This document shows, piece after piece, positions 390-50,031 of a stretch of DNA of 64,000 bases (position 1 is the stretch's first letter; the number at the start of each line of letters is the position of its first letter). The notes beneath the pieces are model-generated. The model did not search any database, was not told where the DNA came from, and saw only the letters and a list, made by a program, of their open reading frames with translations. Made by a program: the position numbers and the translations under genes. The DNA is from Escherichia coli (GTDB lineage: Bacteria > Pseudomonadota > Gammaproteobacteria > Enterobacterales > Enterobacteriaceae): NCBI RefSeq assembly GCF_041248615.1, contig NZ_CP158426.1, one strand, 5' to 3'.

Positions 390-1442
390 ATGGGAATTAG
401 TGTTCGAGTCTTGCAAGCAAATCATGGTGATTGTTTCTTAGTTAGTTATAAGAGCTCAGATAGTGTTTACAACTTGCTAATTGATGGTGGTAATAGCGCC
501 ACATTTATGTTTGGGGCTCAAGGGCGCTACAGTGGTGAGCTTAAATGTGTACTCGATGATTTGAAAAAAGAAGGTCAGAAAATTGACTTGGTTATCTTAA
601 CCCATATAGATGATGATCATATCGGTGGTTTGCTTAGGGCTTTTGAAACACCAGGTTATCTATGCCAAATGGCTTCTTCTATCTGGTTTAATTCTTCAAG
701 ATTTATCACCAAACATTTTAAGGTTGATGAAATTTCAGACAATGATGTCTGTCTTCAAAGTAACTCAACGCAGACAAGTGCTAGGCAAGGGAAGAAACTG
801 GAAAACTTACTTGATGAAATCAATTGCGAACGGCAACCCATAGTTATTGCGGGGCAGAAGTTTACAAGGGGTCCGTTCACATTCACGATCTTATCCCCTG
901 AAGAAGATAATCTACGTAGCCTTCTTCATAAGTGGCCAGATGAGCCAGATCCGGTTACGACATCCGGTGCTTCAAGGGATTATGGAATGAAATTTGAGGA
1001 TATTTTGTCTAATGATAAATTCCAGAGTGATCAATCTGTTTATAATGGTAGCTCAATTGCTTTCATCCTTGAAGCTGATGGTAAGGCTATGCTCTTTTTG
1101 GGCGATTCACATGATGAAAATATTGTCCGTAATTTACGATCTCTTGGTTTTAATGAAGGTAACAAGCTCAAACTCGACCTCGTGAAAATTTCTCATCATG
1201 GTAGCCAGTATAATACTAGCCCTGAATTTTTGTCGCTCATAGATGCGCAAAACTTCATTATATCCACTAATGGGAGTAAGCACGGACTTCCTGATAAGAG
1301 AACTATTGCACGGATTTTATCTTCAGGAGAAGGCAAAATCGGCTTCAATTATTCGCACATTATCCAGGAGATGCTTCACGAAAATGAGGTTCCATTGTAC
1401 TCTTCTCGCCTGGTAGCATTAAATGGAGAAATTAGGCTATAA
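390..1442 (+). CDS. Metallo-beta-lactamase-fold hydrolase (ComEC/Rec2-like MBL family)
   Basis: ORF track 357..1442; ATG at 390 preceded by AGGAAA; motifs LVILTHIDDDHIGG (variant of HxHxDH) and KISHHGSQYNTS typical of MBL-fold enzymes; AT-rich. Confidence 0.7.
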   Translation: MGISVRVLQANHGDCFLVSYKSSDSVYNLLIDGGNSATFMFGAQGRYSGELKCVLDDLKKEGQKIDLVILTHIDDDHIGGLLRAFETPGYLCQMASSIWFNSSRFITKHFKVDEISDNDVCLQSNSTQTSARQGKKLENLLDEINCERQPIVIAGQKFTRGPFTFTILSPEEDNLRSLLHKWPDEPDPVTTSGASRDYGMKFEDILSNDKFQSDQSVYNGSSIAFILEADGKAMLFLGDSHDENIVRNLRSLGFNEGNKLKLDLVKISHHGSQYNTSPEFLSLIDAQNFIISTNGSKHGLPDKRTIARILSSGEGKIGFNYSHIIQEMLHENEVPLYSSRLVALNGEIRL

Positions 1443-1443
1443 A

Positions 1444-2727
1444 ATGACCGCTTCAAATTTGATGGCTTCTAACGCAGTGATCGTGAACGAGGGCAGTGGT
1501 GTTCTTGTTAATGCGATGACTCAAGATTATTCATACGTACTCACAGCAAAACATGTGTTAGCGAAATCAGGTAGTCAAAATATCGTTACTAATCAATATG
1601 GTAACAGTCTTAGAGTGCTTGATGTATTGGTGGGTCAGGAAGAGCATTGCGACTGTGCTGTAATCAAAATTGAATATGTACCAACTGTTGCTCAGCAGTC
1701 CTTCCCTGCAATAGCATTACCCAATTCGGCTTTGCTAAAGTTTGTTGGTTTTCCGGGAACCGAGAGACTAAGCGCTACCCCGCTGAAAATCTATGATGGG
1801 CATGTAACAGATGTAAGGGAGGGGCTGATTAGCTTCACGATAGAAGGCAGTCCCTCAAAAACCGCAATCGATGGAATGTCTGGCGGTGGAATGTATTACA
1901 TAGTTAATGAACATCCCCTCCTTGTTGGTGTAGAATTTGGGATGGACAGTATTCGTCAAGATCTACAATATGGACGTATACAATGTAAAAGTTTAATTGT
2001 TTTTGAAGAGATAATTAATTTAAACAGTGCTGCTCCAATGGTTCCCGCTTATTTGGAGTGTTTTTCACGCTTAAAAGAATATATCTTCGATTTTAATGTT
2101 GTTGATAAAAATAGAGTTCTGAATCTGAAAAACGCATTAAATATTTTTGCAGATGAACTTATAGACAAAGGTATGCCACCACCATTTGAATTAATGTCCA
2201 AATACAAAACTGATTTGTTAGTAGGTCCATATCAAGTTGACGATGTTAAAAATAAAGAATTATGGGTTGCATATTTTGAATTTCTGATAATTTGCGCAAT
2301 TCTTGATAATGTAAGTATTGCCAATAGTTCTTATATAGAAAGTTTAGAGCGGCGTAGGAGAATTCTTTATACTCCGGATGGAAGTAATTGGGTCGGAAAG
2401 CTTGATGTAATCTTAAAAGTTGCTCGAAAGTTATTAGATAAAGATGGCATAGTAATTGTGGCATCTCCAGAAAATGGAGCCGAATTATTACCGGATGATT
2501 TTGAAGTCGATAGGGTTATAAGGAATATTGCGCGAATCGCTAATTCAGGTCCACTTGCTCCTATCGATCAAGTTGAAAAAGAGATGTATAAGAGTTTTGT
2601 ATTAACGCATCTTGAAGGGCTGAGAAAAAAATGTGTTATAAACAAAGAGAGAATGTATGCAGAAGTTGAAGCTGGCTTAGACCAACTTCAGACGTTTAAG
2701 GAAAGCTTTAATGAATTTATTAAATAA
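1444..2727 (+). CDS. Trypsin-like serine peptidase with uncharacterised C-terminal domain
   Basis: ORF track 1423..2727; ATG at 1444 directly after upstream stop (TAA 1440-1442); candidate triad His (LTAKHV), Asp (CDCAVIKI), Ser (GMSGGGMYY); about 240 aa C-terminal extension of unknown fold. Confidence 0.7.
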   Translation: MTASNLMASNAVIVNEGSGVLVNAMTQDYSYVLTAKHVLAKSGSQNIVTNQYGNSLRVLDVLVGQEEHCDCAVIKIEYVPTVAQQSFPAIALPNSALLKFVGFPGTERLSATPLKIYDGHVTDVREGLISFTIEGSPSKTAIDGMSGGGMYYIVNEHPLLVGVEFGMDSIRQDLQYGRIQCKSLIVFEEIINLNSAAPMVPAYLECFSRLKEYIFDFNVVDKNRVLNLKNALNIFADELIDKGMPPPFELMSKYKTDLLVGPYQVDDVKNKELWVAYFEFLIICAILDNVSIANSSYIESLERRRRILYTPDGSNWVGKLDVILKVARKLLDKDGIVIVASPENGAELLPDDFEVDRVIRNIARIANSGPLAPIDQVEKEMYKSFVLTHLEGLRKKCVINKERMYAEVEAGLDQLQTFKESFNEFIK

Positions 2728-3262
2728 AGAATTTGATTTGGAATTTCTTAAATCTAGATTTTCTGATGCAGATTTCTATTTTTTTGTTTCTAATGATGAC
2801 TCATCTTATATTTCATGCGTAGCATGCTATTGTGAGAGCGCTAATTACGTGGTTGCGAATTGGACAGCGATTCAGAATTATTTATCTGCTTACTACCAAC
2901 CGAAGGATGAATTAGCTCTTTGGAATATATATTTAGTTTTCTTTTGTTCCGAAAAATTACCGATTTGGGATAAGTACCTTATAGATAATGATAAGTATTC
3001 TGTCAGAAAATTAATTATTGACGGGTTAACTACTCTGCCAAGTATTTCCGAAACTGTAACTTTTCTGAACAATCATCTGCTAGGCGCAGACCTAGAATTA
3101 ACTGAAATAGAGGAGAAGAAGGAGATAGAGTTATCATTAATTGAGTATATAAGTGGAACTCCTTTAGATTCAAAGGTTGAGTCGAGAGATGAGCGTATGA
3201 GCAGAATTGATAAAATTATTAATCTAGTGAGTTCAAATAAAAATGAAAATAAAAAAAGTTGA
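2711..3262 (+). CDS. Hypothetical protein, 183 aa, middle gene of candidate operon
   Basis: ORF overlaps upstream gene by 17 nt and downstream gene by 20 nt (translational coupling); no recognisable motif. Confidence 0.5.
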   Translation: MNLLNKEFDLEFLKSRFSDADFYFFVSNDDSSYISCVACYCESANYVVANWTAIQNYLSAYYQPKDELALWNIYLVFFCSEKLPIWDKYLIDNDKYSVRKLIIDGLTTLPSISETVTFLNNHLLGADLELTEIEEKKEIELSLIEYISGTPLDSKVESRDERMSRIDKIINLVSSNKNENKKS

Positions 3263-6200
3263 AATAGAAGGCTTTCGAGCATACAGATTCAAGGAAGATG
3301 GTACTTTCGATTTTACAAATAAAGATGATACGCCATCCAATTTTGTAGCGATCTATGCACCCAATGGCTTTGGAAAAAGTTCATTCTATGATGCGGTTGA
3401 ATGGGCTATTACTCATAATTTAGATAGATTTGCGGGTGAATATAATAAAAAAAATTATGAGCAAGCTGCCAGGAGCACGAAAGAGGACGGTGTTGCACAA
3501 AAAATACTACGTAATAAAGATGTACCAGACAATATTCCTACTCGTGTAACAGTTTTCACTACTTTACCAACTCCATTCGAACAAAGTTTAGGAACAGTTC
3601 GTTCTGATTCTAGAGATATAAGAATCGGCGAGAATAAAAATAAAATCAATGGCTATTTTAGAAAAGTGGTTCTTAGTCAAGATGAAATAGACCGTTTTTT
3701 AAAAGAAGCAAAGCCGCAAGATCGTTATAAGATGTTTATGGAGAGTTTTGGAGGTGAATGGGAAAAGGCGAGACAAGAGCTAACTATACTATTGAATGAC
3801 AATAAGGCGGTTTTGTTAAATCTCGAAAAAAACAAAAATGAACTTCAGGAACAACTAGATCAGCCTGTTGATGCGTCAACATTCATACAATTTAATAAAA
3901 TAGCATCTGAACTTGTAGCAGAAGGTGAAAGTTTACCATTAGTAGATGAAACAACTATAGTTAATACACAGCATGAGCTTTTGGAAAAAATAATCACAAG
4001 AAGTCACGAAATAAATTTTTCCTTAAACAAGAAAAAAATATTGAGAGATTCGATTTCTGAGTATATTTTAAAATTTCCTGATATCAGTTTTCGTACAACC
4101 CAGATTATCGAGAAAAAGAATAGACTAGAAAAAATAAATAAAGGGATAGAAGATGTCGGTCGTTATAAGACATTTCAGTCTACTCTTGAAAAACTGACTA
4201 TCGAAAAGAAAAAGATAAGTCAGAGCTTAAATTTTATAGAAGAATTAGATGGTTTATCCCAAGAGTTTTTAAGCTTGGAATTTAACTTGGAATCAGCTCG
4301 AAAGAAACATAGAGAGATTTCATATAATTATGAAAATGAAAAAACTCTCCTTGATAATTTATTCCAAACAAGAAACCAAAATGATGCTGATTTATCTTCA
4401 ATTGACAAGCGATGCTTATCTATACGTTCTACGTTAGAAAACGCTACGGTTACTTATTCTAATATATCTAATATACAAAATAAAATTTTAAATATAGTTT
4501 CTACGCAAACAGAATTAGAGCACAAACTTAATCAAGTTAGATCCGAATACCAAAAAAACAAATCCGAATTAAACAAAGTATCAGATTTAACAATAACCGC
4601 CAAATCATTACTTTCATCAGACTTAAGTCTAATTGATTTATCTTCAGATTTATTAAAAGAACTAAACAACTTATCGCAAGAACTAAATATATTGGTCCTA
4701 CATGATCAATCAATTCATAACACACAAGAATCTCTTTCTGCACAAATGGGAGTTCACGAACGTCTAATTGCATCGGGCCTTGAGTACTTAAGTTTATGGC
4801 CGACTAATATATGTCCTTTATGTCACAAGCCGCATGACTCTGAGTCCTCTCTTAGAGAACAAGTAACAAATACTGACGTAATATCCATGCTTAGTAAAGA
4901 GAATGCAGCTAAGCTCGAGATATCCTCAAAACGGCGGTCAGAGTTAAATGGCAAGATAGAATCCATCGTACAGAAAGCCCTTGAAATTAAAATGAGTAAA
5001 CTTGAGGTATTAAGTAAAAAGGTCAATCAACAAGGAAATGAGATACATCGAGAAGAACAGCACTATACAGCTCTTTTAGCAGAAAAACAGTCTGTCCAAA
5101 ATCAGTTAAACGAGTTGCAGAAGGCTGTAGCTGGACTAACTAAAGATGAATTATTAGCTCGCTTAGATGCTGAACTTAAAGAATTAGAGGCCAAGAAAAA
5201 TGAAGTGATAAAAAACAAGCTGACCTTGACGAAAAATATTAACGTTAAAAGAACGTTGATTACAGAGTTAAGTGGGGCGATCAATTTACTTAATACGCAA
5301 ATTCATGAAATGATGTCATCATCTAACTATTTAAAAACAAAAGCTTACTCTGAAGAAAATGGCTTGTCATCGGAGTTTTTGAAAGAACATTATGATGATA
5401 AACGCCATTTTTACCTTAAAAATATAAATGGACTCAATTTTGAGATTAATAATATTACCAGCCAATTAAATGATCTTCAGAAAGCTATGATAGCCGATGA
5501 AATGTGGCTGGATTATGAAGAAATGATTTCTGAAAAAGAGAATTTCGAGGATTATATTTCTAAATCAGAAGCGGTTTTACAATCTTATTCATCATTATTA
5601 AAGCAGCATTTTGAACTACCAAAATATGAATCTTTAGTTGAATTGAAAGATTTCCTGATAAGCTCACTTGATAAAGAAACTAGGCTTTATAATGGTCTAG
5701 AGGAACGGCTTGGAAAATATAATTTATTATCAGAACTTTTGAAAACAGCAGAGTCGTTTGTAAAAAGTATTAAGTTGCAGAATGATATTAATGAAACCTT
5801 AGGTCTTATAGAAATAAGAAAAGAAGTTGATTTAGCTCTGACTAAGGAACGAAATCAAGTAATAGAGGAACTTAGAAACTTGATAAAATCTTTCTTTTAT
5901 GAGGAACTCATTAATTCTATTTATAAGAGAATAGATCCACATCCATCACTTAAGAAAGTGGTGTTTCGCCCAGATTTTGACTCATCAGATAAACCTGGTC
6001 TTAATATAGTTGTCAGTGATGAAAAAGGTGATATGGTATCTCCAATATTATTCTTTAGTGCAGCGCAATTAAATATTCTAAGCCTTAGTGTCTTTTTAGC
6101 AAGTGCTTTGCATGCAAAAGATGATAATGGAAATGTAATTGATGTGATTATGATTGATGATCCAATTCAATCAATGGATTCAATTAATATCCTATCCACA

Positions 6201-6380
6201 ATTGATCTTCTTAGAAGTATTACCGTTAGATTCAACAAACAAATAATAATATCAACACATGACGACAATTTCTTTGGCTTGCTCCAACGTAAAATCCCTT
6301 CGGAAATATTGGGTGCCAAGTTTCTTAAATTGGAGAAATTTGGGGTTGTAGTGCCTGTTGATGATTTAAATAATACATGA
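3243..6380 (+). CDS. SMC/Rad50/RecF-like ABC ATPase with long coiled coil and central CxxC motif
   Basis: N-terminal Walker A YAPNGFGKSSFYDAVEWAI; long K/E/L/Q-rich coiled-coil middle; CPLCHKP near centre; C-terminal signature-like FSAAQLNILSLS, Walker B VIMIDDP, His-switch ISTHD. Confidence 0.8.
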   Translation: MKIKKVEIEGFRAYRFKEDGTFDFTNKDDTPSNFVAIYAPNGFGKSSFYDAVEWAITHNLDRFAGEYNKKNYEQAARSTKEDGVAQKILRNKDVPDNIPTRVTVFTTLPTPFEQSLGTVRSDSRDIRIGENKNKINGYFRKVVLSQDEIDRFLKEAKPQDRYKMFMESFGGEWEKARQELTILLNDNKAVLLNLEKNKNELQEQLDQPVDASTFIQFNKIASELVAEGESLPLVDETTIVNTQHELLEKIITRSHEINFSLNKKKILRDSISEYILKFPDISFRTTQIIEKKNRLEKINKGIEDVGRYKTFQSTLEKLTIEKKKISQSLNFIEELDGLSQEFLSLEFNLESARKKHREISYNYENEKTLLDNLFQTRNQNDADLSSIDKRCLSIRSTLENATVTYSNISNIQNKILNIVSTQTELEHKLNQVRSEYQKNKSELNKVSDLTITAKSLLSSDLSLIDLSSDLLKELNNLSQELNILVLHDQSIHNTQESLSAQMGVHERLIASGLEYLSLWPTNICPLCHKPHDSESSLREQVTNTDVISMLSKENAAKLEISSKRRSELNGKIESIVQKALEIKMSKLEVLSKKVNQQGNEIHREEQHYTALLAEKQSVQNQLNELQKAVAGLTKDELLARLDAELKELEAKKNEVIKNKLTLTKNINVKRTLITELSGAINLLNTQIHEMMSSSNYLKTKAYSEENGLSSEFLKEHYDDKRHFYLKNINGLNFEINNITSQLNDLQKAMIADEMWLDYEEMISEKENFEDYISKSEAVLQSYSSLLKQHFELPKYESLVELKDFLISSLDKETRLYNGLEERLGKYNLLSELLKTAESFVKSIKLQNDINETLGLIEIRKEVDLALTKERNQVIEELRNLIKSFFYEELINSIYKRIDPHPSLKKVVFRPDFDSSDKPGLNIVVSDEKGDMVSPILFFSAAQLNILSLSVFLASALHAKDDNGNVIDVIMIDDPIQSMDSINILSTIDLLRSITVRFNKQIIISTHDDNFFGLLQRKIPSEILGAKFLKLEKFGVVVPVDDLNNT

Positions 6381-13357: not shown

Positions 13358-13651
13358 GTAGCAAAAAGCCGCAAAGGAATGCGGCTTAATGGGCTGGGGG
13401 TACTAAACCAGTAAAGGTTTAGTCAGTAATATTAGTGAAGCAGAGCAAGTATCGAACAGTCATATTCCTGTAGTGGTATTAAGACAACCTTAAGAAGGGA
13501 CTGATGTATAGCTACTCTTGTATACCCATCCATGGAAAATTCGGTTGTATTGCCGGGTTGATATGTGCAGGTTGGTCCCGACCCAAGAAGTTTTTACTGT
13601 GAAAATTGTCAAACTATATCAATGTGGTAACAGCTTCTCTTGTCCCTTTGG

Positions 13652-14002
13652 TTATTTCAAATTGGACCGGGCTATCTGTTGCAACACGGTTGCTCTGCTT
13701 GAAACAGAGTTAACATATGCAACATCAGATACTTTGAGTTTGATCAGATCATAGCCTCGTAGCTTACTGTCCAAGGTCATATTGAACAGAGTTAAATCGC
13801 GCATTTTACCTTCCATTTCAAGCCTGATTCGGATCCCCCCTGATATGAGATATCTGAAGTGGTCTTTTTGGTCAGTGATACTTACAATACGGTCTTTGTC
13901 CCACGGTGACGTGTTCATACTCAAAGCTCCTGTAATGTTGGAGATTTGAGCATGGTTATCCCTCATGAGCGAGGAACGGACAATGTCCCTTGCGCGATCC
14001 AA
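13652..14002 (-). CDS. Hypothetical protein, possible recombinase-like remnant
   Basis: 116-aa ORF; weak resemblance (LRGYDLIKLKVSDV) to tyrosine recombinase core motif; no clear start context. Confidence 0.25.
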   Translation of the reverse strand: MDRARDIVRSSLMRDNHAQISNITGALSMNTSPWDKDRIVSITDQKDHFRYLISGGIRIRLEMEGKMRDLTLFNMTLDSKLRGYDLIKLKVSDVAYVNSVSSRATVLQQIARSNLK

Positions 14003-18514: not shown

Positions 18515-18880
18515 ATGATTGATGTCTTAGGACCGGAGAAACGCAGACGGCGTACTACACAGGAAAAGATCGCTATTGTTCAGCAGAGTTTTGAACCGGG
18601 AATGAAGGTCTCCCTTGTTGCCCGGCAACACGGTGTGGCAGCCAGCCAGTTATTTCTCTGGCGCAAGCAATACCAGGAGGGAAGTCTTACTGCTGTGGCC
18701 GCAGGAGAGCAGGTCGTTCCTGCCTCTGAACTTGCTGCTGCCATGAAGCAGATTAAAGAACTCCAGCGCCTGCTCGGCAAAAAAACGATGGAAAATGAAC
18801 TCCTTAAAGAAGCCGTTGAATACGGGCGTGCAAAAAAGTGGATAGCGCACGCGCCCTTATTGCCCGGGGATGGGGAGTAA
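18515..18880 (+). CDS. insC: IS2 transposase OrfA (InsC)
   Basis: [29 protein letters not shown]... matches recalled IS2 InsC; ATG at 18515 inside track ORF 18470..18880. Confidence 0.9.
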
Positions 18881-19743
18881 GCTTAGTCAGCCGTTGTCTC
18901 CGGGTGTCGCGTGCGCAGTTGCACGTAATTCTCAGACGAACCGATGACTGGAAAGATGGTCGCCGCAGCCGTCACTCAGATGATACGGATGTGCTTCTCC
19001 GTATACACCATGTTATCGGAGAGCTGCCCACGTATGGTTATCGTCGGGTATGGGCGCTGCTTCGCAGACAGGCCGAACTTGATGGTACGCCTGCGATCAA
19101 TGCCAAACGTGTTTACCGGATCATGCGCCAGAATGCGCTGTTGCTTGAGCGAAAAACCGCTGTACCGCCATCGAAACGGGCACATACTGGCAAAGTGGCC
19201 GTGAAAGAAAGCAATCAACGATGGTGCTCTGACGGGTTCGAGTTCCGCTGTGATAACGGAGAAAAACTGCGAGTCACGTTCGCGCTGGACTGCTGTGACC
19301 GTGAGGCACTGCACTGGGCAGTCACTACGGGCGGCTTCGACAGTGAAACAGTACAGGACGTCATGCTGGGAGCGGTGGAACGCCGCTTCGGCAACGAGCT
19401 TCCGGCGTCTCCAGTAGAGTGGCTGACGGATAATGGTTCATGCTACCGGGCTAATGAAACACGGCAGTTTGCCCGGATATTGGGGCTTGAACCGAAGAAC
19501 ACGGCGGTGCGGAGTCCGGAGAGTAACGGCATAGCAGAGAGCTTCGTGAAAACGATAAAGCGTGACTACATCAGTATCATGCCTAAACCAGACGGGTTAA
19601 CGGCAGCAAAGAACCTTGCAGAGGCGTTCGAGCATTATAACGAATGGCATCCGCATAGTGCACTGGGTTATCGCTCGCCACGGGAATATCTGCGGCAGCA
19701 GGCCAGTAATGGGTTAAGTGATAACAGGTGTCTGGAAATATAG
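18838..19743 (+). CDS. insD: IS2 transposase OrfB (InsD), DDE integrase domain
   Basis: Overlaps insC 3' end in a different frame as expected for IS3-family frameshifting; sequence matches recalled IS2 OrfB. Confidence 0.9.
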
Positions 19744-45000: not shown

Positions 45001-45739
45001 TCTGACGTTCGCATTCAAAAAGAGTAAAACTGCCTTTAACAATATCAGCTTCTCCATTGATGAAGGTGAGGTACTGTGCGTATTAGGACCGAATGGTGTT
45101 GGCAAAACAACATTGCTTAAAACGGTTACCGGTCTGTATCAACCGGTTAGTGGCTCATGTCATATTGGCCGAGTGGGAAACCGGAAAGCTCGTATGGCGT
45201 ATGTCCCGCAGGCCAAACGTGTTCACTTTTCTTACAATGTACTCGATTTCATCTCCTTTGGGTGCCCATTACGGGGCGGAATGCTGGCATCTCCTGGGGC
45301 GAGGGACATCGAAAAAGCGGCGCGAATATTGTCGGGACTTGGCGCTTCATATCTTGCAACCAAAGACGTTAACCAGATAAGTGGAGGTGAACTACAGATG
45401 TGCTACATCGCGAAGGCGCTGGTCTCAGAGCCGGACATCCTTGTGCTTGATGAACCTGAATCAAATCTTGATTTTAATAATCAGTCTCTCATTATCAATT
45501 GGTTGCACACGTTGTCGCGAGAGAAAAAAGTTACTATTATCCTGAATACGCACTTCATCAATCATGCAAATAACATTGCAGATAAATGTTTGCTAATGGG
45601 AAAAGATAGTTACTGTTTTGGAACAACACAGAGTGTCTTACAAGAGTCTCTCCTCGCCGATTATTTCCATGTTCCCGTTAAACGCTGTCATTTTGAACAC
45701 AAAGGAATACAGAAAGAATCATTTATTGTTGCAGTGTGA
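44984..45739 (+). CDS. ABC transporter ATP-binding protein
   Basis: Walker A GPNGVGKTT; signature ISGGELQM; Walker B ILVLDEP. Confidence 0.9.
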   Translation: MIEVNNLTFAFKKSKTAFNNISFSIDEGEVLCVLGPNGVGKTTLLKTVTGLYQPVSGSCHIGRVGNRKARMAYVPQAKRVHFSYNVLDFISFGCPLRGGMLASPGARDIEKAARILSGLGASYLATKDVNQISGGELQMCYIAKALVSEPDILVLDEPESNLDFNNQSLIINWLHTLSREKKVTIILNTHFINHANNIADKCLLMGKDSYCFGTTQSVLQESLLADYFHVPVKRCHFEHKGIQKESFIVAV

Positions 45740-45934
45740 TAGGTAGCCAATATCGCAGAGAAAATAAGAATTGAGGAATTGTTTATTGCGAAACCGTGCG
45801 AGTAGATGGTAATTCTGGTAGGAATATCATTTACGATTGATCAATTTTCCCACGGACTATATGCGATAAAATAACTTTGTCGATGCATGAAATAGCAGCT
45901 TCATTTTGTTAAAAGTAATAATAAAGGTGTAATT

Positions 45935-46552
45935 ATGATTAAAAAATTCGTTGAAGAATATCTTAATCAGATCTACATAAAAAAATACTCAATTATTACT
46001 ATTAATTCTCTTGATGAAGCTTCAATTATATCTAATATGCCTCATTGTTGGGAGCGTGATTTTCTGAAAAGAGAGCTGCATCTTCGAAGTGATATTGTAT
46101 TGAAAGCTAGAAGTAAAATAACCCCCTTCAAATGGTCTTCTGTAAATGGTAATAATGAAGATCTTAAGGCTTTATCCAATAGGTATAATATTAGCAATGG
46201 GGTGACTTTTGTTATAAAAATAAAACATGATGTCGTGATCTTCACGATGTACTACAATGAGGATGATGAGGATTTCATAAGATACTACTCTAGAAAGAAA
46301 CATAAAATATTGTATGATGTTATGAGTCTTTTTGAATCCCATTATGAACAAACACCCAAACATGTATTCACTGTACGAGAAAAGGAAGTTATGAATTTGC
46401 TGAAGTTTGGAAAAACTTATATTGAAATAGCATTTATTCTTGGTGTAAGTGAAAGGACCGTCAGATTTCATATCAATAATATTCTTGATAAATTGAATGT
46501 GACATCAGTTCGTTATGCGATCTTTAAAGCAGCTTCCGAAGGTTTGATCTGA
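45935..46552 (+). CDS. LuxR/FixJ-family HTH transcriptional regulator
   Basis: C-terminal LuxR-type HTH REKEVMNLLKFGKTYIEIAFILGVSERTVRFHINNILDKL; AT-rich. Confidence 0.75.
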   Translation: MIKKFVEEYLNQIYIKKYSIITINSLDEASIISNMPHCWERDFLKRELHLRSDIVLKARSKITPFKWSSVNGNNEDLKALSNRYNISNGVTFVIKIKHDVVIFTMYYNEDDEDFIRYYSRKKHKILYDVMSLFESHYEQTPKHVFTVREKEVMNLLKFGKTYIEIAFILGVSERTVRFHINNILDKLNVTSVRYAIFKAASEGLI

Positions 46553-46572
46553 CAAGGTTTTCCTTGTCAGAT
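46545..46572. terminator. Perfect hairpin GATCTGACAAGG-TTTT-CCTTGTCAGATC at luxR-type gene 3' end
   Basis: 12-bp stem, 4-nt loop overlapping the stop codon. Confidence 0.6.
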
Positions 46573-46578
46573 CATCTA

Positions 46579-46836
46579 TCAATGACGATAGAATTCTGAA
46601 AGGCGTAATCTCAAGCCATCGGTATCAAATCCATGCGCCCGAATGTGTTCTTCTGGGGTCCAAAATTGTCTGAGCTCCTTTGGTTTTGCACCAATGGACA
46701 AGATTCTGTGAGGTATATCGGACAATGCCTCACCTATAGCATGAATTGTCGTTCCTTCTAGGTATGGTTAACCTAGCCGGTTTATTACTACATGTCGTGG
46801 CAACTCCAGCGGAGTACATAATAGTCCATTCAGCAT
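46579..46836 (-). pseudogene. Short interrupted ORF (about 85 codons with one in-frame TAA), possible gene remnant
   Basis: Hand translation MLNGLLCTPLELPRHVVINRLG*PYLEGTTIHAIGEALSDIPHRILSIGAKPKELRQFWTPEEHIRAHGFDTDGLRLRLSEFYRH; protein-like but interrupted. Confidence 0.3.
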
Positions 46837-46883
46837 TGTTACTTTTTGTGAACTAGACTGGAAAAGAACTGGGTCAAATCACA

Positions 46884-48158
46884 TTAAATGAAGATACGTA
46901 GGCCGACCGCCGCCAGATGATCTGATACATTATATGACGCATCAGTGTTACCGCTTGCTTTCTCATAACCGTATTCAATATAGGTCACTGCGTTTTTCCC
47001 CAGCCAGTAATCGGTACCCAGCGTGGTGGACTGGAAGTGTTGACCGTCCATCGCATCACCGCCTTCGGTCCAGTCAAAGTTGGCATAGACGCTCCACTCA
47101 GGGGTAATTTTGAACTGTGAGGCATATTCCAGACCCAGAATCGTTTCTTGGTCGTTAGTCTGTTTGCTGGCGCCGCTGGTTGCTGCCTGAACGTCATCAA
47201 CTTTGTTGATATAGTAAGTCGCTTGCGCGCCGTTATACCAGGTGAAACTATCAAAGCTGGTTGTGTACTTAGCGTTCATCCCCATCGAATAGGTATTACC
47301 GTCATATGAAGGGCCGGTCACCGTTGTAACTGGAACAGTACCACCGTGCGGACCTATGGGCACATCCGTGGTTATGGTACCCTGATTGACAGAATAGTTG
47401 TTATAAGCTGCCGTACCGGAAAGTGAGAAACCATTATCGAAGCGATATTGTGCTGCTAACGCAGCGCCGCCGTGAACAGTCGCGGAACCATCGTGGTACG
47501 CATCATGCATATCCGGTCCGTTGCCGTAACCGCTGCCAAAACCAATTTTATCGACATCGTCATTCCCTTGGCCCATTACACCCACCGTGAAGGCCTTGGT
47601 GTTGTAATAATAAATAACAGCCGAGTTAATAATATCGGTCGACATACCAGTGGTATCATGTTTGGCTTTGCCACCGTATGCATAGGTGGTATCAATTCCC
47701 AGCCCCCAGTCGGTTGGGGAATATTGCTTACCGAAAGTCACCACCCCATATTCATCATTACCTATCCCCGCATACGCCTGACGGGTATAAACATCGTTAC
47801 CCTGATTATCAGTTGCGGAATCCAGACCGTGTATGCCAGTTTCATAATAACCTGCTGCGTAATAGCCTTTGTCATTAATATTGTGTCGTAGTGCGACACC
47901 CAGACGTGAGTCGTTGTTTTGTATATTATGTTCTACACTGTGCGCTGAATCGTTCTTTGCCATGAGACGTAAGGATCCCATAACTGAAATGGCTGTATCA
48001 TCATTTTGATAAATCATCTCCCCCTTGGTCTGTGTAGCAGTATATGCTGGAGCCGTATGTTCCCCGCTACTCACCTGTGCACAGGCAGGTGCGACTATTG
48101 CTGCAGTAATAAGCGGAGCAACAATAAATGGTTTAAGTCTTATATATTTTACGTGCAT
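46884..48158 (-). CDS. Outer-membrane porin-like beta-barrel protein
   Basis: Signal peptide MHVKYIRLKPFIVAPLITAAIVAPACAQ; Gly/Tyr/Asn/Thr-rich barrel-like composition; start at internal ATG of track ORF. Confidence 0.7.
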   Translation of the reverse strand: MHVKYIRLKPFIVAPLITAAIVAPACAQVSSGEHTAPAYTATQTKGEMIYQNDDTAISVMGSLRLMAKNDSAHSVEHNIQNNDSRLGVALRHNINDKGYYAAGYYETGIHGLDSATDNQGNDVYTRQAYAGIGNDEYGVVTFGKQYSPTDWGLGIDTTYAYGGKAKHDTTGMSTDIINSAVIYYYNTKAFTVGVMGQGNDDVDKIGFGSGYGNGPDMHDAYHDGSATVHGGAALAAQYRFDNGFSLSGTAAYNNYSVNQGTITTDVPIGPHGGTVPVTTVTGPSYDGNTYSMGMNAKYTTSFDSFTWYNGAQATYYINKVDDVQAATSGASKQTNDQETILGLEYASQFKITPEWSVYANFDWTEGGDAMDGQHFQSTTLGTDYWLGKNAVTYIEYGYEKASGNTDASYNVSDHLAAVGLRIFI

Positions 48159-48422
48159 AGAAACCCCATGATCATTGTTTAAGTTCATTTTTAGAGTGTT
48201 TTTTAAATATGGAGAGTCTATTAAAAGCTTTTGAATATAAAATAAAACTGTCAGTTCTGACAGGAGTGTTTTTTATTTTCAATTAAATTATTAAGCATTT
48301 TTTCGGAGATGTGGGTTTTTTACACGGTATTAGCGAAACGGTTTGCCATGTAGTTTGGACAAAGTAAAAAGCCGCATCAGTCTGCACTGATGCGGCTTTG
48401 ATTTGTCAGGGTGACTAAATCA

Positions 48423-49694
48423 CTAGCCAGCTTGAAGCGTCGTTTTTCCTCTCCCCAGTATGTAGGGCGGTACATAGGATTTGCGGCAAGTATCCAGATA
48501 ATCCGACCACCACTGCATCATTGCCTTTCTTGCTTCCAGATGCTCTGCTCTGTGAATATATGCCTGGCGTACGGAGTTACGTTCCTGGTGGCTCATTTGC
48601 CGTTCAACAGCATCCTGTGACCATATACTGGATTCCATAAGGGCACTGCATGCCATTGTCCTGAAACCGTGACCACAGATTTCCATTTTCGTATCCCAGC
48701 CCATCAGGCGTAGCGCCTTGTTCACCGTATTTTCACACATGGGTTTATACGGATTATGGTCCCCGGGGAACACGAGTGCATTATCTCCTGAGATATCCTT
48801 AATCTTTTTCAAGATCGCGATCGACTGTTGTGAGAGGGGTACGATATGAGGCCTGCGCATTTTGGCACCACGACCAGAGTAACGCACGCCTTCAATAGCT
48901 TCGCGCGTGGCGGGTATTGTCCAGACCTGGTTTCCGAAATCAATTTCATGCCAGCGGGCAAAACGCAATTCACTCGAGCGAATGAACAGATGCAGTGTTA
49001 GCAGGATGGCAAGGCGAGTGAGTTCACGGCACTGCTGAAAACTCTCAATGCTCTCAAGCAGTTCTGGAAGACGCTCCAGTGGTAGAGCGGGGTAGTGTCG
49101 TTTTACTGGTGGAGCCGTCACTCCGTCAAGGTTTGCTGCCGGATTAAAATCGATTAATCCATGATGCACGGCGTAGCGCATGATATTCCGGAGGTGCTGG
49201 CGTGTACGGGATGCAACTTCCAGGAGACCCTTTTCCTCAATTCCTTTTAATAAAGTGATGAAATGGCGGGGTTTCAGTTCTGAAACTGACATGGTGCCAA
49301 TGACTGGGAAGATATGATTATTCATGCTGGCGAGCAAACGGTCGGCGGTGTTCTCTGACCATTTTTTATTGCTCTTGTGCCATGCAAGTGCAACGTTTCT
49401 AAACACTTTCTTTGGCATGCGAGAACTGCGTTCGGCTGCTCGCTGCTCTGCTGGATTGATGTTCAGTACCAGCATTTTGCGAATACCTTCACGTTGACTA
49501 CGGGCGTCTGAGAGGGAGATGACTGGGTAGGCACCGAGTGCAATACGTGATTCTTTACCCTTAATACGGTACTTGAGATACCAGTGACGTGAACCGCCAG
49601 GTTTGACCAAGAGATACAGACCGTGGGAATCGGAAACTTTAAAGGGTTTATCAGATGGTTTGAGACTGCGGATTTTGGTGTCGGTAAGAGACAT
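48423..49694 (-). CDS. int: P4-type tyrosine integrase (tRNA-adjacent)
   Basis: 423 aa; N-terminal arm-binding-like region, C-terminal catalytic domain; 161 nt from tRNA-Asn 3' end. Confidence 0.9.
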   Translation of the reverse strand: MSLTDTKIRSLKPSDKPFKVSDSHGLYLLVKPGGSRHWYLKYRIKGKESRIALGAYPVISLSDARSQREGIRKMLVLNINPAEQRAAERSSRMPKKVFRNVALAWHKSNKKWSENTADRLLASMNNHIFPVIGTMSVSELKPRHFITLLKGIEEKGLLEVASRTRQHLRNIMRYAVHHGLIDFNPAANLDGVTAPPVKRHYPALPLERLPELLESIESFQQCRELTRLAILLTLHLFIRSSELRFARWHEIDFGNQVWTIPATREAIEGVRYSGRGAKMRRPHIVPLSQQSIAILKKIKDISGDNALVFPGDHNPYKPMCENTVNKALRLMGWDTKMEICGHGFRTMACSALMESSIWSQDAVERQMSHQERNSVRQAYIHRAEHLEARKAMMQWWSDYLDTCRKSYVPPYILGRGKTTLQAG

Positions 49695-49855
49695 ATGGGG
49701 TCACTCCATAATAGAACGAACCGGACCCCAGATTTGACCACCAATTTTTCCCGATGCGGAGGATAAAATCAAAATGCATCAGGAGAAGTTTTCACGCTAA
49801 GCTGTTGTATTAAAACCATAGAGGCATTAATGAATGCTGCACGAAAACAAGAATT

Positions 49856-49931
49856 TGGCTCCTCTGACTGGACTCGAACCAGTGACATACGGATTAACAG
49901 TCCGCCGTTCTACCGACTGAACTACAGAGGA
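49856..49931 (-). tRNA. asnT: tRNA-Asn (anticodon GUU)
   Basis: Reverse complement reads TCCTCTGTAGTTCAGTCGGTAGAACGGCGGACTGTTAATCCGTATGTCACTGGTTCGAGTCCAGTCAGAGGAGCCA; matches recalled E. coli tRNA-Asn; next to mtfA as at the E. coli asnT locus. Confidence 0.95.
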
Positions 49932-50031
49932 ATCGTGTGAACGGGGCGCATATTACTTAGCGGTACCTTGTCTGTCAACACTAAATTTCATAAGCCATTT
50001 CAATTGGTTAATTAATCTGCAAAGTTGTTAA

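Follow-up and report, generated by a model that had tools for sequence, protein, structure and literature searches.

What kind of gene, if any, was once encoded between a LuxR-type regulator gene and a porin gene in a mobile region of the Escherichia coli genome? The question is raised by a stretch of 64,000 nucleotides from E. coli contig NZ_CP158426.1 (hereafter the window), for which an initial annotation, made from the sequence alone, described a protein-like short ORF with one in-frame TAA lying between these two genes. It was explained there as either a recently inactivated small gene or the remnant of a longer one, and a check of related elements for an intact homologue was proposed. 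Translation confirms the description: read on the minus strand from 46836 to 46579, the DNA gives an ATG followed by 21 codons, then a TAA, another 62 codons and a TGA, or 86 codons in all (ATG at 46836-46834, single internal TAA at 46770-46768, terminal TGA at 46581-46579), which translate as MLNGLLCTPLELPRHVVINRLG, stop, PYLEGTTIHAIGEALSDIPHRILSIGAKPKELRQFWTPEEHIRAHGFDTDGLRLRLSEFYRH, stop. The plus strand of the same segment has stops throughout, and the excess over chance openness is limited to the 62 codons downstream of the TAA. Both flanking genes named by the annotation were recovered by Pfam as described, with the porin gene open in all 12 of the loci examined, and RefSeq/PGAP annotates no feature in the interval that separates them (46553-46883):

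45935-46552, plus strand: LuxR-type regulator gene, intact, 205 aa (Autoind_bind and GerE domains)
46884-48188, minus strand: porin gene, intact (Porin_1), upstream of the interrupted frame and on the same strand; PGAP start at 48158

The answer comes from E. coli A38, whose corresponding locus (L001) carries seven extra genes between the LuxR and porin genes, all on the porin's strand. A BLAST comparison of window positions 45001-50000 with this locus returned two colinear blocks that leave L001 8371-14193, or 5,823 bp, without a counterpart in the window, and A38 is 92-93% identical to the window on both sides of the missing block. Base by base, homology switches cleanly at 46769 with one shared T (a 1-bp microhomology), and the A38 breakpoints have no repeats or mobile-element ends flanking them. 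The internal TAA straddles exactly this switch, and the interval is partitioned as follows:

45001-46769: left BLAST block, corresponding to L001 6601-8370
46769-48949: right BLAST block, corresponding to L001 14194-16370
46579-46767, minus strand: remnant of the 3' end of the last A38 operon gene, a transketolase family gene (TK-C), 62 codons plus TGA, matching by homology to A38 residues 248-309 of the full-length protein of 309 aa (hereafter the stump)
46768-46770, minus strand: in-frame TAA straddling the deletion junction (junction base 46769; left homology ends at L001 8370, right homology begins at L001 14194)
46771-46836, minus strand: mini-ORF of 22 codons (ATG to GGT), spacer-derived and outside the transketolase gene, homologous in A38 to the spacer that separates the porin stop codon from the start of the AfsA-like gene
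46770-46883: surviving 114 bp of the intergenic spacer between the porin gene and the AfsA operon, right of the deletion, 93% identical to L001 14194-14307

On the minus strand the window reads GGT TA/A CCA (the slash marks the junction), the A38 gene GTA GAA CCG and the A38 spacer GGT TAG GAT, so that the A38 transketolase codon at the position of the TAA is GAA. What is missing from the window comprises the promoter, the genes for the AfsA-like protein, acyl carrier protein (ACP), beta-ketoacyl synthase (KAS), HAD hydrolase, MFS transporter and transketolase N-terminal subunit (TK-N), and 247 codons of TK-C.

We are therefore highly confident that the feature is a non-functional TK-C stump together with a deletion scar, left by the 5.8-kb loss of a seven-gene operon within a mobile island. 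The ancestral island would have carried this operon between the porin and LuxR-type genes, on the strand of the porin, and a single event, likely one of illegitimate recombination at 1 bp of microhomology, would have removed the 5,823 bp. Beginning approximately 143 bp upstream of the AfsA-like start, the deletion would have taken the promoter with its palindromic box and everything as far as codon 247 of TK-C, and would have joined the remaining 62 TK-C codons by chance, and in frame, to an accidental spacer ORF of 22 codons, with the junction itself creating the stop. Devoid of a start codon, promoter or catalytic domain, the stump would since have been drifting.

The intact homologue whose existence the initial annotation proposed to check was found both in E. 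coli A38 and in other genera, as a protein of approximately 309 aa. Against the A38 protein (WP_240727287) the stump is identical at 54 of 62 amino acids (87%) and 169 of 186 nucleotides (91%), and it aligns with residues 248-309 of 19 intact homologues. The A38 protein has a Pfam Transket_pyr domain at residues 16-174 (its Transketolase_C match falls below threshold), and aligns over residues 16-295 with the C chain of 6YAJ (E = 1.8e-24), and its gene lies beside one for a Transketolase_N subunit; the stump corresponds to the end of the C-terminal domain, which includes the conserved G-V, G-T-P and G-L motifs. Submitted to Pfam alone, the stump matched no family and returned noise only (Chordopox_A30L, SeqA_N; E > 0.08). 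Being unrecognisable to a domain-library search, it was thus recognised only by direct comparison with an undeleted relative. Rfam found no family in 46400-47000, the best hit being a meaningless snoRNA at 15.7 bits against a gathering score of 75, and a 30-mer of the stump beside the junction had no exact match in the JGI metagenomes.

How far does this homology carry? The closest structural reference is the C subunit of split-chain transketolases (Carboxydothermus hydrogenoformans, PDB 6YAJ/6YAK), which combines Transket_pyr and Transketolase_C domains, and the likeness of our feature to it is that of its A38 orthologue. Over the region that is present the stump does show homology to transketolase. 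However, the window possesses only 62 of the 309 codons; the pyrimidine-binding Transket_pyr domain is absent, its codons lying within the missing 5,823 bp; no Transketolase_N partner gene is found between the LuxR and porin genes; and the stump has no complete ORF of its own, as the TAA at the junction closes the frame and the 22 codons upstream are spacer DNA. In addition, three conserved C-terminal residues have been replaced, the window reading IGA, FWTP and HGF in place of IGV, FGTP and HGL, where the V, G and L are kept in 19 of 19 homologues and in 6YAJ. The stump is a pseudogene fragment and not a member of the transketolase family, with which it shares residual homology only. Intact enterobacterial TK-C itself differs from the reference in its context, which is a secondary-metabolite-type operon as opposed to the pentose-phosphate pathway.

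The scar is not confined to the window. Among complete E. coli genomes 5 of 5,426 contain this DNA, 4 with the short form seen here and 1 (A38) with the full form. Searches for the identical LuxR protein and for a close allele of it gave, among the matches listed, 11 further E. coli loci in which the LuxR gene is followed by the porin gene across a spacer of 331 or 330 bp with the same junction. In three of the 12 scar loci (L014, L017 and L018) the T4 run at 46684-46687 is one T shorter, which shifts the frame of the stump. The stump also carries five residues unique with respect to the 19 homologues (T8I, V27A, L29P, G36W and L47F), and the V to A, G to W and L to F changes fall in columns that do not vary from E. 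coli to Amycolatopsis and are kept in 6YAJ (kvGVn / sGTPq / yGLt), as compared with 0-3 unique residues and 0-1 invariant-column breaks in intact close relatives. Its dN/dS relative to A38 is 0.24 (17 differences), as opposed to 0.07-0.17 for the intact neighbours encoding LuxR (0.15), the ABC ATPase, the permease and the porin, a modest difference that lies in the expected direction and is on its own no proof of relaxed selection.

From these changes we infer that the stump is without function, and the explanation that survives best against this is that it has been kept for one, either as the 3' UTR or terminator region of mRNAs from the porin or LuxR gene, or in the form of a micro-protein of 48 aa translated from an internal TTG. 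A TTG-initiated 48-codon ORF (46579-46725) does persist inside the stump, transcriptional read-through from the porin gene could reach it, and the terminator scan found no obvious terminator of the porin gene's own before the stump. Moreover, the scar sequence is almost invariant among the 12 loci, and a strong, conserved hairpin lies just beyond the stump's stop:

46545-46574: perfect hairpin with a 13-bp stem (TGATCTGACAAGG-TTTT-CCTTGTCAGATCA), identified by folding, between the convergent LuxR gene and stump

This hairpin has a minimum free energy of -27.2 kcal/mol (z = -5.1; 0 of 200 shuffles as stable), overlaps the LuxR stop codon, lies 5 bp past the stop of the stump and is conserved in A38. 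The terminator scan missed it because it has no T-run on either strand. It is probably a 3'-end structure shared by two convergent transcription units, and it may now end read-through transcripts from the porin gene. The near-invariance of the scar, on the other hand, follows from the recent common ancestry of the islands, which are 99.8-100% identical over 20 kb, and retention is contradicted by the frameshift within the stump in three loci, by the replacement of otherwise invariant residues and by the absence of the exact 48-aa product from a collection of 15 billion proteins. Taken together, we consider a retained function highly unlikely.

If the stump is the tail of a lost gene, what did that gene belong to? 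The A38 operon encodes, in order, an AfsA-related hotdog protein (297 aa), an ACP (79 aa), a beta-ketoacyl synthase (410 aa), a HAD hydrolase (231 aa), an MFS transporter (386 aa), a transketolase N-terminal subunit (243 aa) and the transketolase family protein TK-C (309 aa), with Pfam matches to AfsA, PP-binding, ketoacyl-synt, MFS_1, Transketolase_N and Transket_pyr. Intact 309-aa TK-C orthologues, 69-96% identical, occur in Citrobacter, Klebsiella, Salmonella, Dickeya, Serratia and others, with more distant relatives (approximately 64% identical) in Amycolatopsis and Streptomyces; the closest relatives of TK-C outside the enterobacteria are actinobacterial. A search of genome contigs with A38 TK-C returned a single Streptomyces contig, the peptide patterns used being too strict for this result to be informative on synteny. 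The gene order AfsA-ACP-KAS-HAD-MFS-TKN-TKC with a convergent LuxR gene is conserved in the loci we examined, both on islands (L005/L006, and L021 of Salmonella) and on the chromosome (L007/L008 of Dickeya and L020 of Serratia). Together with the convergent 205-aa LuxR-type regulator this forms an eight-gene module (L001 8180-14050; also in L005, L007, L020 and L021) that is apparently uncharacterised and that occurs in several Enterobacterales, on asn-tRNA conjugative islands as well as on the chromosome.

The lost operon is a cluster of the AfsA/Spt9 type. Like the butyrolactone and butenolide clusters of this type (A-factor AfsA of Streptomyces griseus; salinipostin spt), it starts with an AfsA hotdog gene, an ACP gene and a KAS gene, and the AfsA hotdog gene (PF03756) with its acyl-carrier machinery is present in A38, L005, Dickeya, Serratia and Salmonella and deleted from the window. 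In contrast to the spt cluster, the enterobacterial operon lacks spt1, spt5, spt6 and spt7 and has instead a split transketolase, a HAD hydrolase and an MFS exporter. A further difference is that clusters of this type have a TetR/ArpA-type regulator, whereas the enterobacterial operon, itself absent from the window, is paired with a LuxR-type one. Homologues of Spt9 that adjoin spt4-like ACP genes are mentioned in passing for Citrobacter koseri and Dickeya (PMC8209734), and a quorum-sensing-regulated AfsA/HAD pair has been described in Chromobacterium (PMC12114271); beyond these two reports our literature search found no paper on the enterobacterial operon.

Could the window, then, be the ancestral form, with the seven-gene block inserted into A38-type islands to create the full-length gene? 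The short form is the one seen in 4 of the 5 complete RefSeq genomes that have the region and in all E. coli loci listed except A38, and the right breakpoint lies within approximately 4 bp of the point where A38 and L005 lose homology, hinting at a recombination-prone site. An insertion could not, however, have built a 309-codon gene upon its own pre-existing, in-frame last 62 codons. The 309-aa protein and the convergent LuxR/TK-C pair are also found at chromosomal, non-island positions in Dickeya and Serratia, and the A38 breakpoints bear no repeats or mobile-element ends. Since the intact 309-aa protein is widespread and the eight-gene arrangement is conserved in the loci examined, the full form is ancestral, and since the tail of a gene cannot precede the gene, we infer that it is the window that carries a deletion and not A38 an insertion, to which we would give only a very remote chance. 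Within this island the intact operon was found in A38 (92-93% identical) and a few Logan contigs only, and no near-identical, undeleted ancestor of the window island was found among the genomes and contigs compared. Two other lesions were observed in the operon: the MFS gene of one Logan contig (L006 5259-6418) is split into 264 and 122 aa, and in Citrobacter portucalensis protein P0046 TK-C is shortened to 199 aa. These independent lesions suggest that loss or inactivation of the operon is frequent.

The 22 codons that precede the TAA differ in origin from the 62 that follow it. The A38 spacer carries the same mini-ORF (MLNGLLCILLELSRHVVINRSG), ended there by a TAG at the same codon; six changes separate window and A38 within it (4 nonsynonymous, 2 synonymous), and the third island variant (L005/L006) lacks the segment. 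The 22 codons are of non-coding origin. The apparent 85-codon frame is accordingly a chimera of a chance spacer ORF, a deletion junction and a true gene tail, and the frame that they share is accidental. It follows that a chance ORF in AT-rich intergenic DNA, with no coding history at all, would be a correct account of the 22 upstream codons, and the failure of the stump alone to match Pfam and the empty annotation of the interval seem to extend it to the remainder. For the 62-codon part it is refuted by 87% amino acid identity to the A38 C-terminus and by alignment with 19 homologues, actinobacterial ones included, and as an account of the whole feature we give it practically no credence.

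Equally negligible is a gene of approximately 85 codons inactivated recently by one nonsense mutation: the continuous frame, leading ATG, single internal TAA and protein-like translation all invite this reading, but the transketolase homology ends exactly at the TAA, the part upstream of it matches A38 spacer 5.8 kb away, where the spacer ORF stops at the same codon, so that the two halves are of different origin. No 85-aa homologue exists, all homologues being approximately 309 aa. Between the alternatives offered by the initial annotation, the remnant of a longer gene thus holds good, at 62 of 309 codons, and the recently inactivated small gene has to be given up, as its supposed nonsense codon lies on a 5.8-kb deletion junction and nothing of its size exists among the homologues.

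Two observations concern the junction itself. The right endpoint (GGTTA/; window 46769-46773, L001 14194-14197, L005 ~4912) lies within approximately 4 bp of the site upstream of the AfsA promoter where A38 and L005 lose homology. At this site A38 has a 70-bp spacer and L005 has 1.9 kb of inserted DNA carrying an 86-aa ORF and a gene for a GNAT acetyltransferase, so that three different junctions coincide at one spot, which may be prone to recombination. The terminator scan also called a small hairpin (CTAGGTATGGTTAACCTAG) across the junction, which we regard as accidental.

The locus is embedded in the cargo of an integrative conjugative element with a VirB-type type IV secretion system (T4SS), MobC and a coupling protein, and the window matches E. 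coli NRZ14408 (NZ_LT599825.1, ~2,083,672-2,147,671) at 100% identity. Two further landmarks of the element are:

48423-49694: P4-type integrase gene
49856-49931: tRNA-Asn

Integrative conjugative elements at the asn-tRNA genes of Enterobacteriaceae are known from the HPI/ICEEc1-like family, which the present element resembles in its P4-type integrase beside tRNA-Asn, VirB-type T4SS, MobC/coupling protein and variable cargo. It differs in what it carries, namely an iron-type ABC transporter, two porins, amiA and the LuxR/AfsA module in place of the yersiniabactin genes. Other cargo includes, at window 390-6380, a ComEC/Rec2-family protein, two 'ABC-three component system' proteins and a 1,045-aa AAA ATPase (RefSeq annotation), a module that could be a candidate for defence-type cargo. 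Also inside the island are a frameshifted integrase fragment (13517-13918, annotated as a pseudogene) and an IS3-family transposase gene (18515-19743), signs of mosaic cargo and decay. A related island in E. coli 2022H047 has different cargo and is uninformative on the operon.

The island adjoins mtfA in the window and in L010-L013, L015, L016, L018 and L019, and a LysR-family gene in L002 (where it is annotated nac), L014 and L017. The scarred island was accordingly observed at two tRNA-Asn genes, one (49856-49931) by mtfA/serU in NRZ14408 and the other (L002 11456-11531) by nac/cbl in strains 2018-06-4CC and YF-1. The presence of the same scar at two chromosomal sites implies that it predates either the spread of the island or a rearrangement between the sites, i.e. 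that the element moved, or the asn-tRNA region was rearranged, after the deletion.

The deletion left the LuxR-type gene in place, and its present status deserves comment. The regulator scores 56 bits for GerE and, marginally, 23.6 bits for Autoind_bind against a cut-off of 23. Its gene is convergent with TK-C in A38, L005/L006, Dickeya, Serratia and Salmonella. No synthase genes are found between LuxR and porin in the window and none is annotated in window 1-50000, so within that range it is an Autoind_bind and GerE regulator with no cognate synthase nearby, i.e. a LuxR solo. LuxR solos, for example SdiA of E. coli, are well known, as are lux-box operators of the form CTG-N10-CAG. A palindrome of this form is present upstream of the porin gene:

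48248-48263: palindrome of 16 bp, CTGTCAGAACTGACAG (CTG-N10-CAG), found once in the window, ahead of the porin gene

Further copies, including variants of this sequence, lie at L001 14111-14126 and 15670-15685, L005 1622-1637 and 4983-4998, L007 4984-4999, L020 ~2884-2899 and L021 ~2943-2958. The motif stands 75-104 bp upstream of the AfsA-like start in five clusters (A38, L005, Dickeya, Serratia and Salmonella) that otherwise diverge in their flanks, a phylogenetic footprint which suggests an operator, in the simplest case for the LuxR-type protein encoded alongside. Approximately 85 bp around the porin palindrome are similar to DNA upstream of the AfsA-like gene of A38 and L005. Together with the operon the deletion took that operon's own box, and it spared both the regulator and the box-bearing porin gene. 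The window is like SdiA-type systems in having an intact Autoind_bind and GerE regulator with no adjacent synthase and a CTG-N10-CAG motif before a neighbouring gene, but its regulator is short (205 aa) with a marginal Autoind_bind match, and its binding of ligand and DNA is putative. Its orphan state also differs in origin, having arisen through a visible deletion and not through acquisition of a lone receptor.

For annotation, the importance of the stump itself is that interval 46553-46883 merits a note as a pseudogene and deletion scar. As a marker, the stump indicates that an asn-tRNA conjugative island once carried an AfsA-type operon, and that all short-form E. coli copies examined descend from one deletion. 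Although speculative, and in our judgement rather improbable, it is also conceivable that the scar records the conversion of a signaling unit, in which an AfsA-type operon would have been under LuxR-family autoregulation via CTG-N10-CAG, to a listen-only state, with synthesis lost and the receptor and its box-controlled porin kept. The pairing of a LuxR-family receptor with an AfsA-derived, non-AHL signal would then be one not previously described in Enterobacterales, and E. coli carrying the scarred island could respond to signals from operon-bearing Citrobacter, Klebsiella, Salmonella, Serratia and Dickeya. In A38, which has the operon, and strains of the NRZ14408 type, which do not, E. coli offers a natural pair for probing both the product of the operon and the ligand of its regulator.
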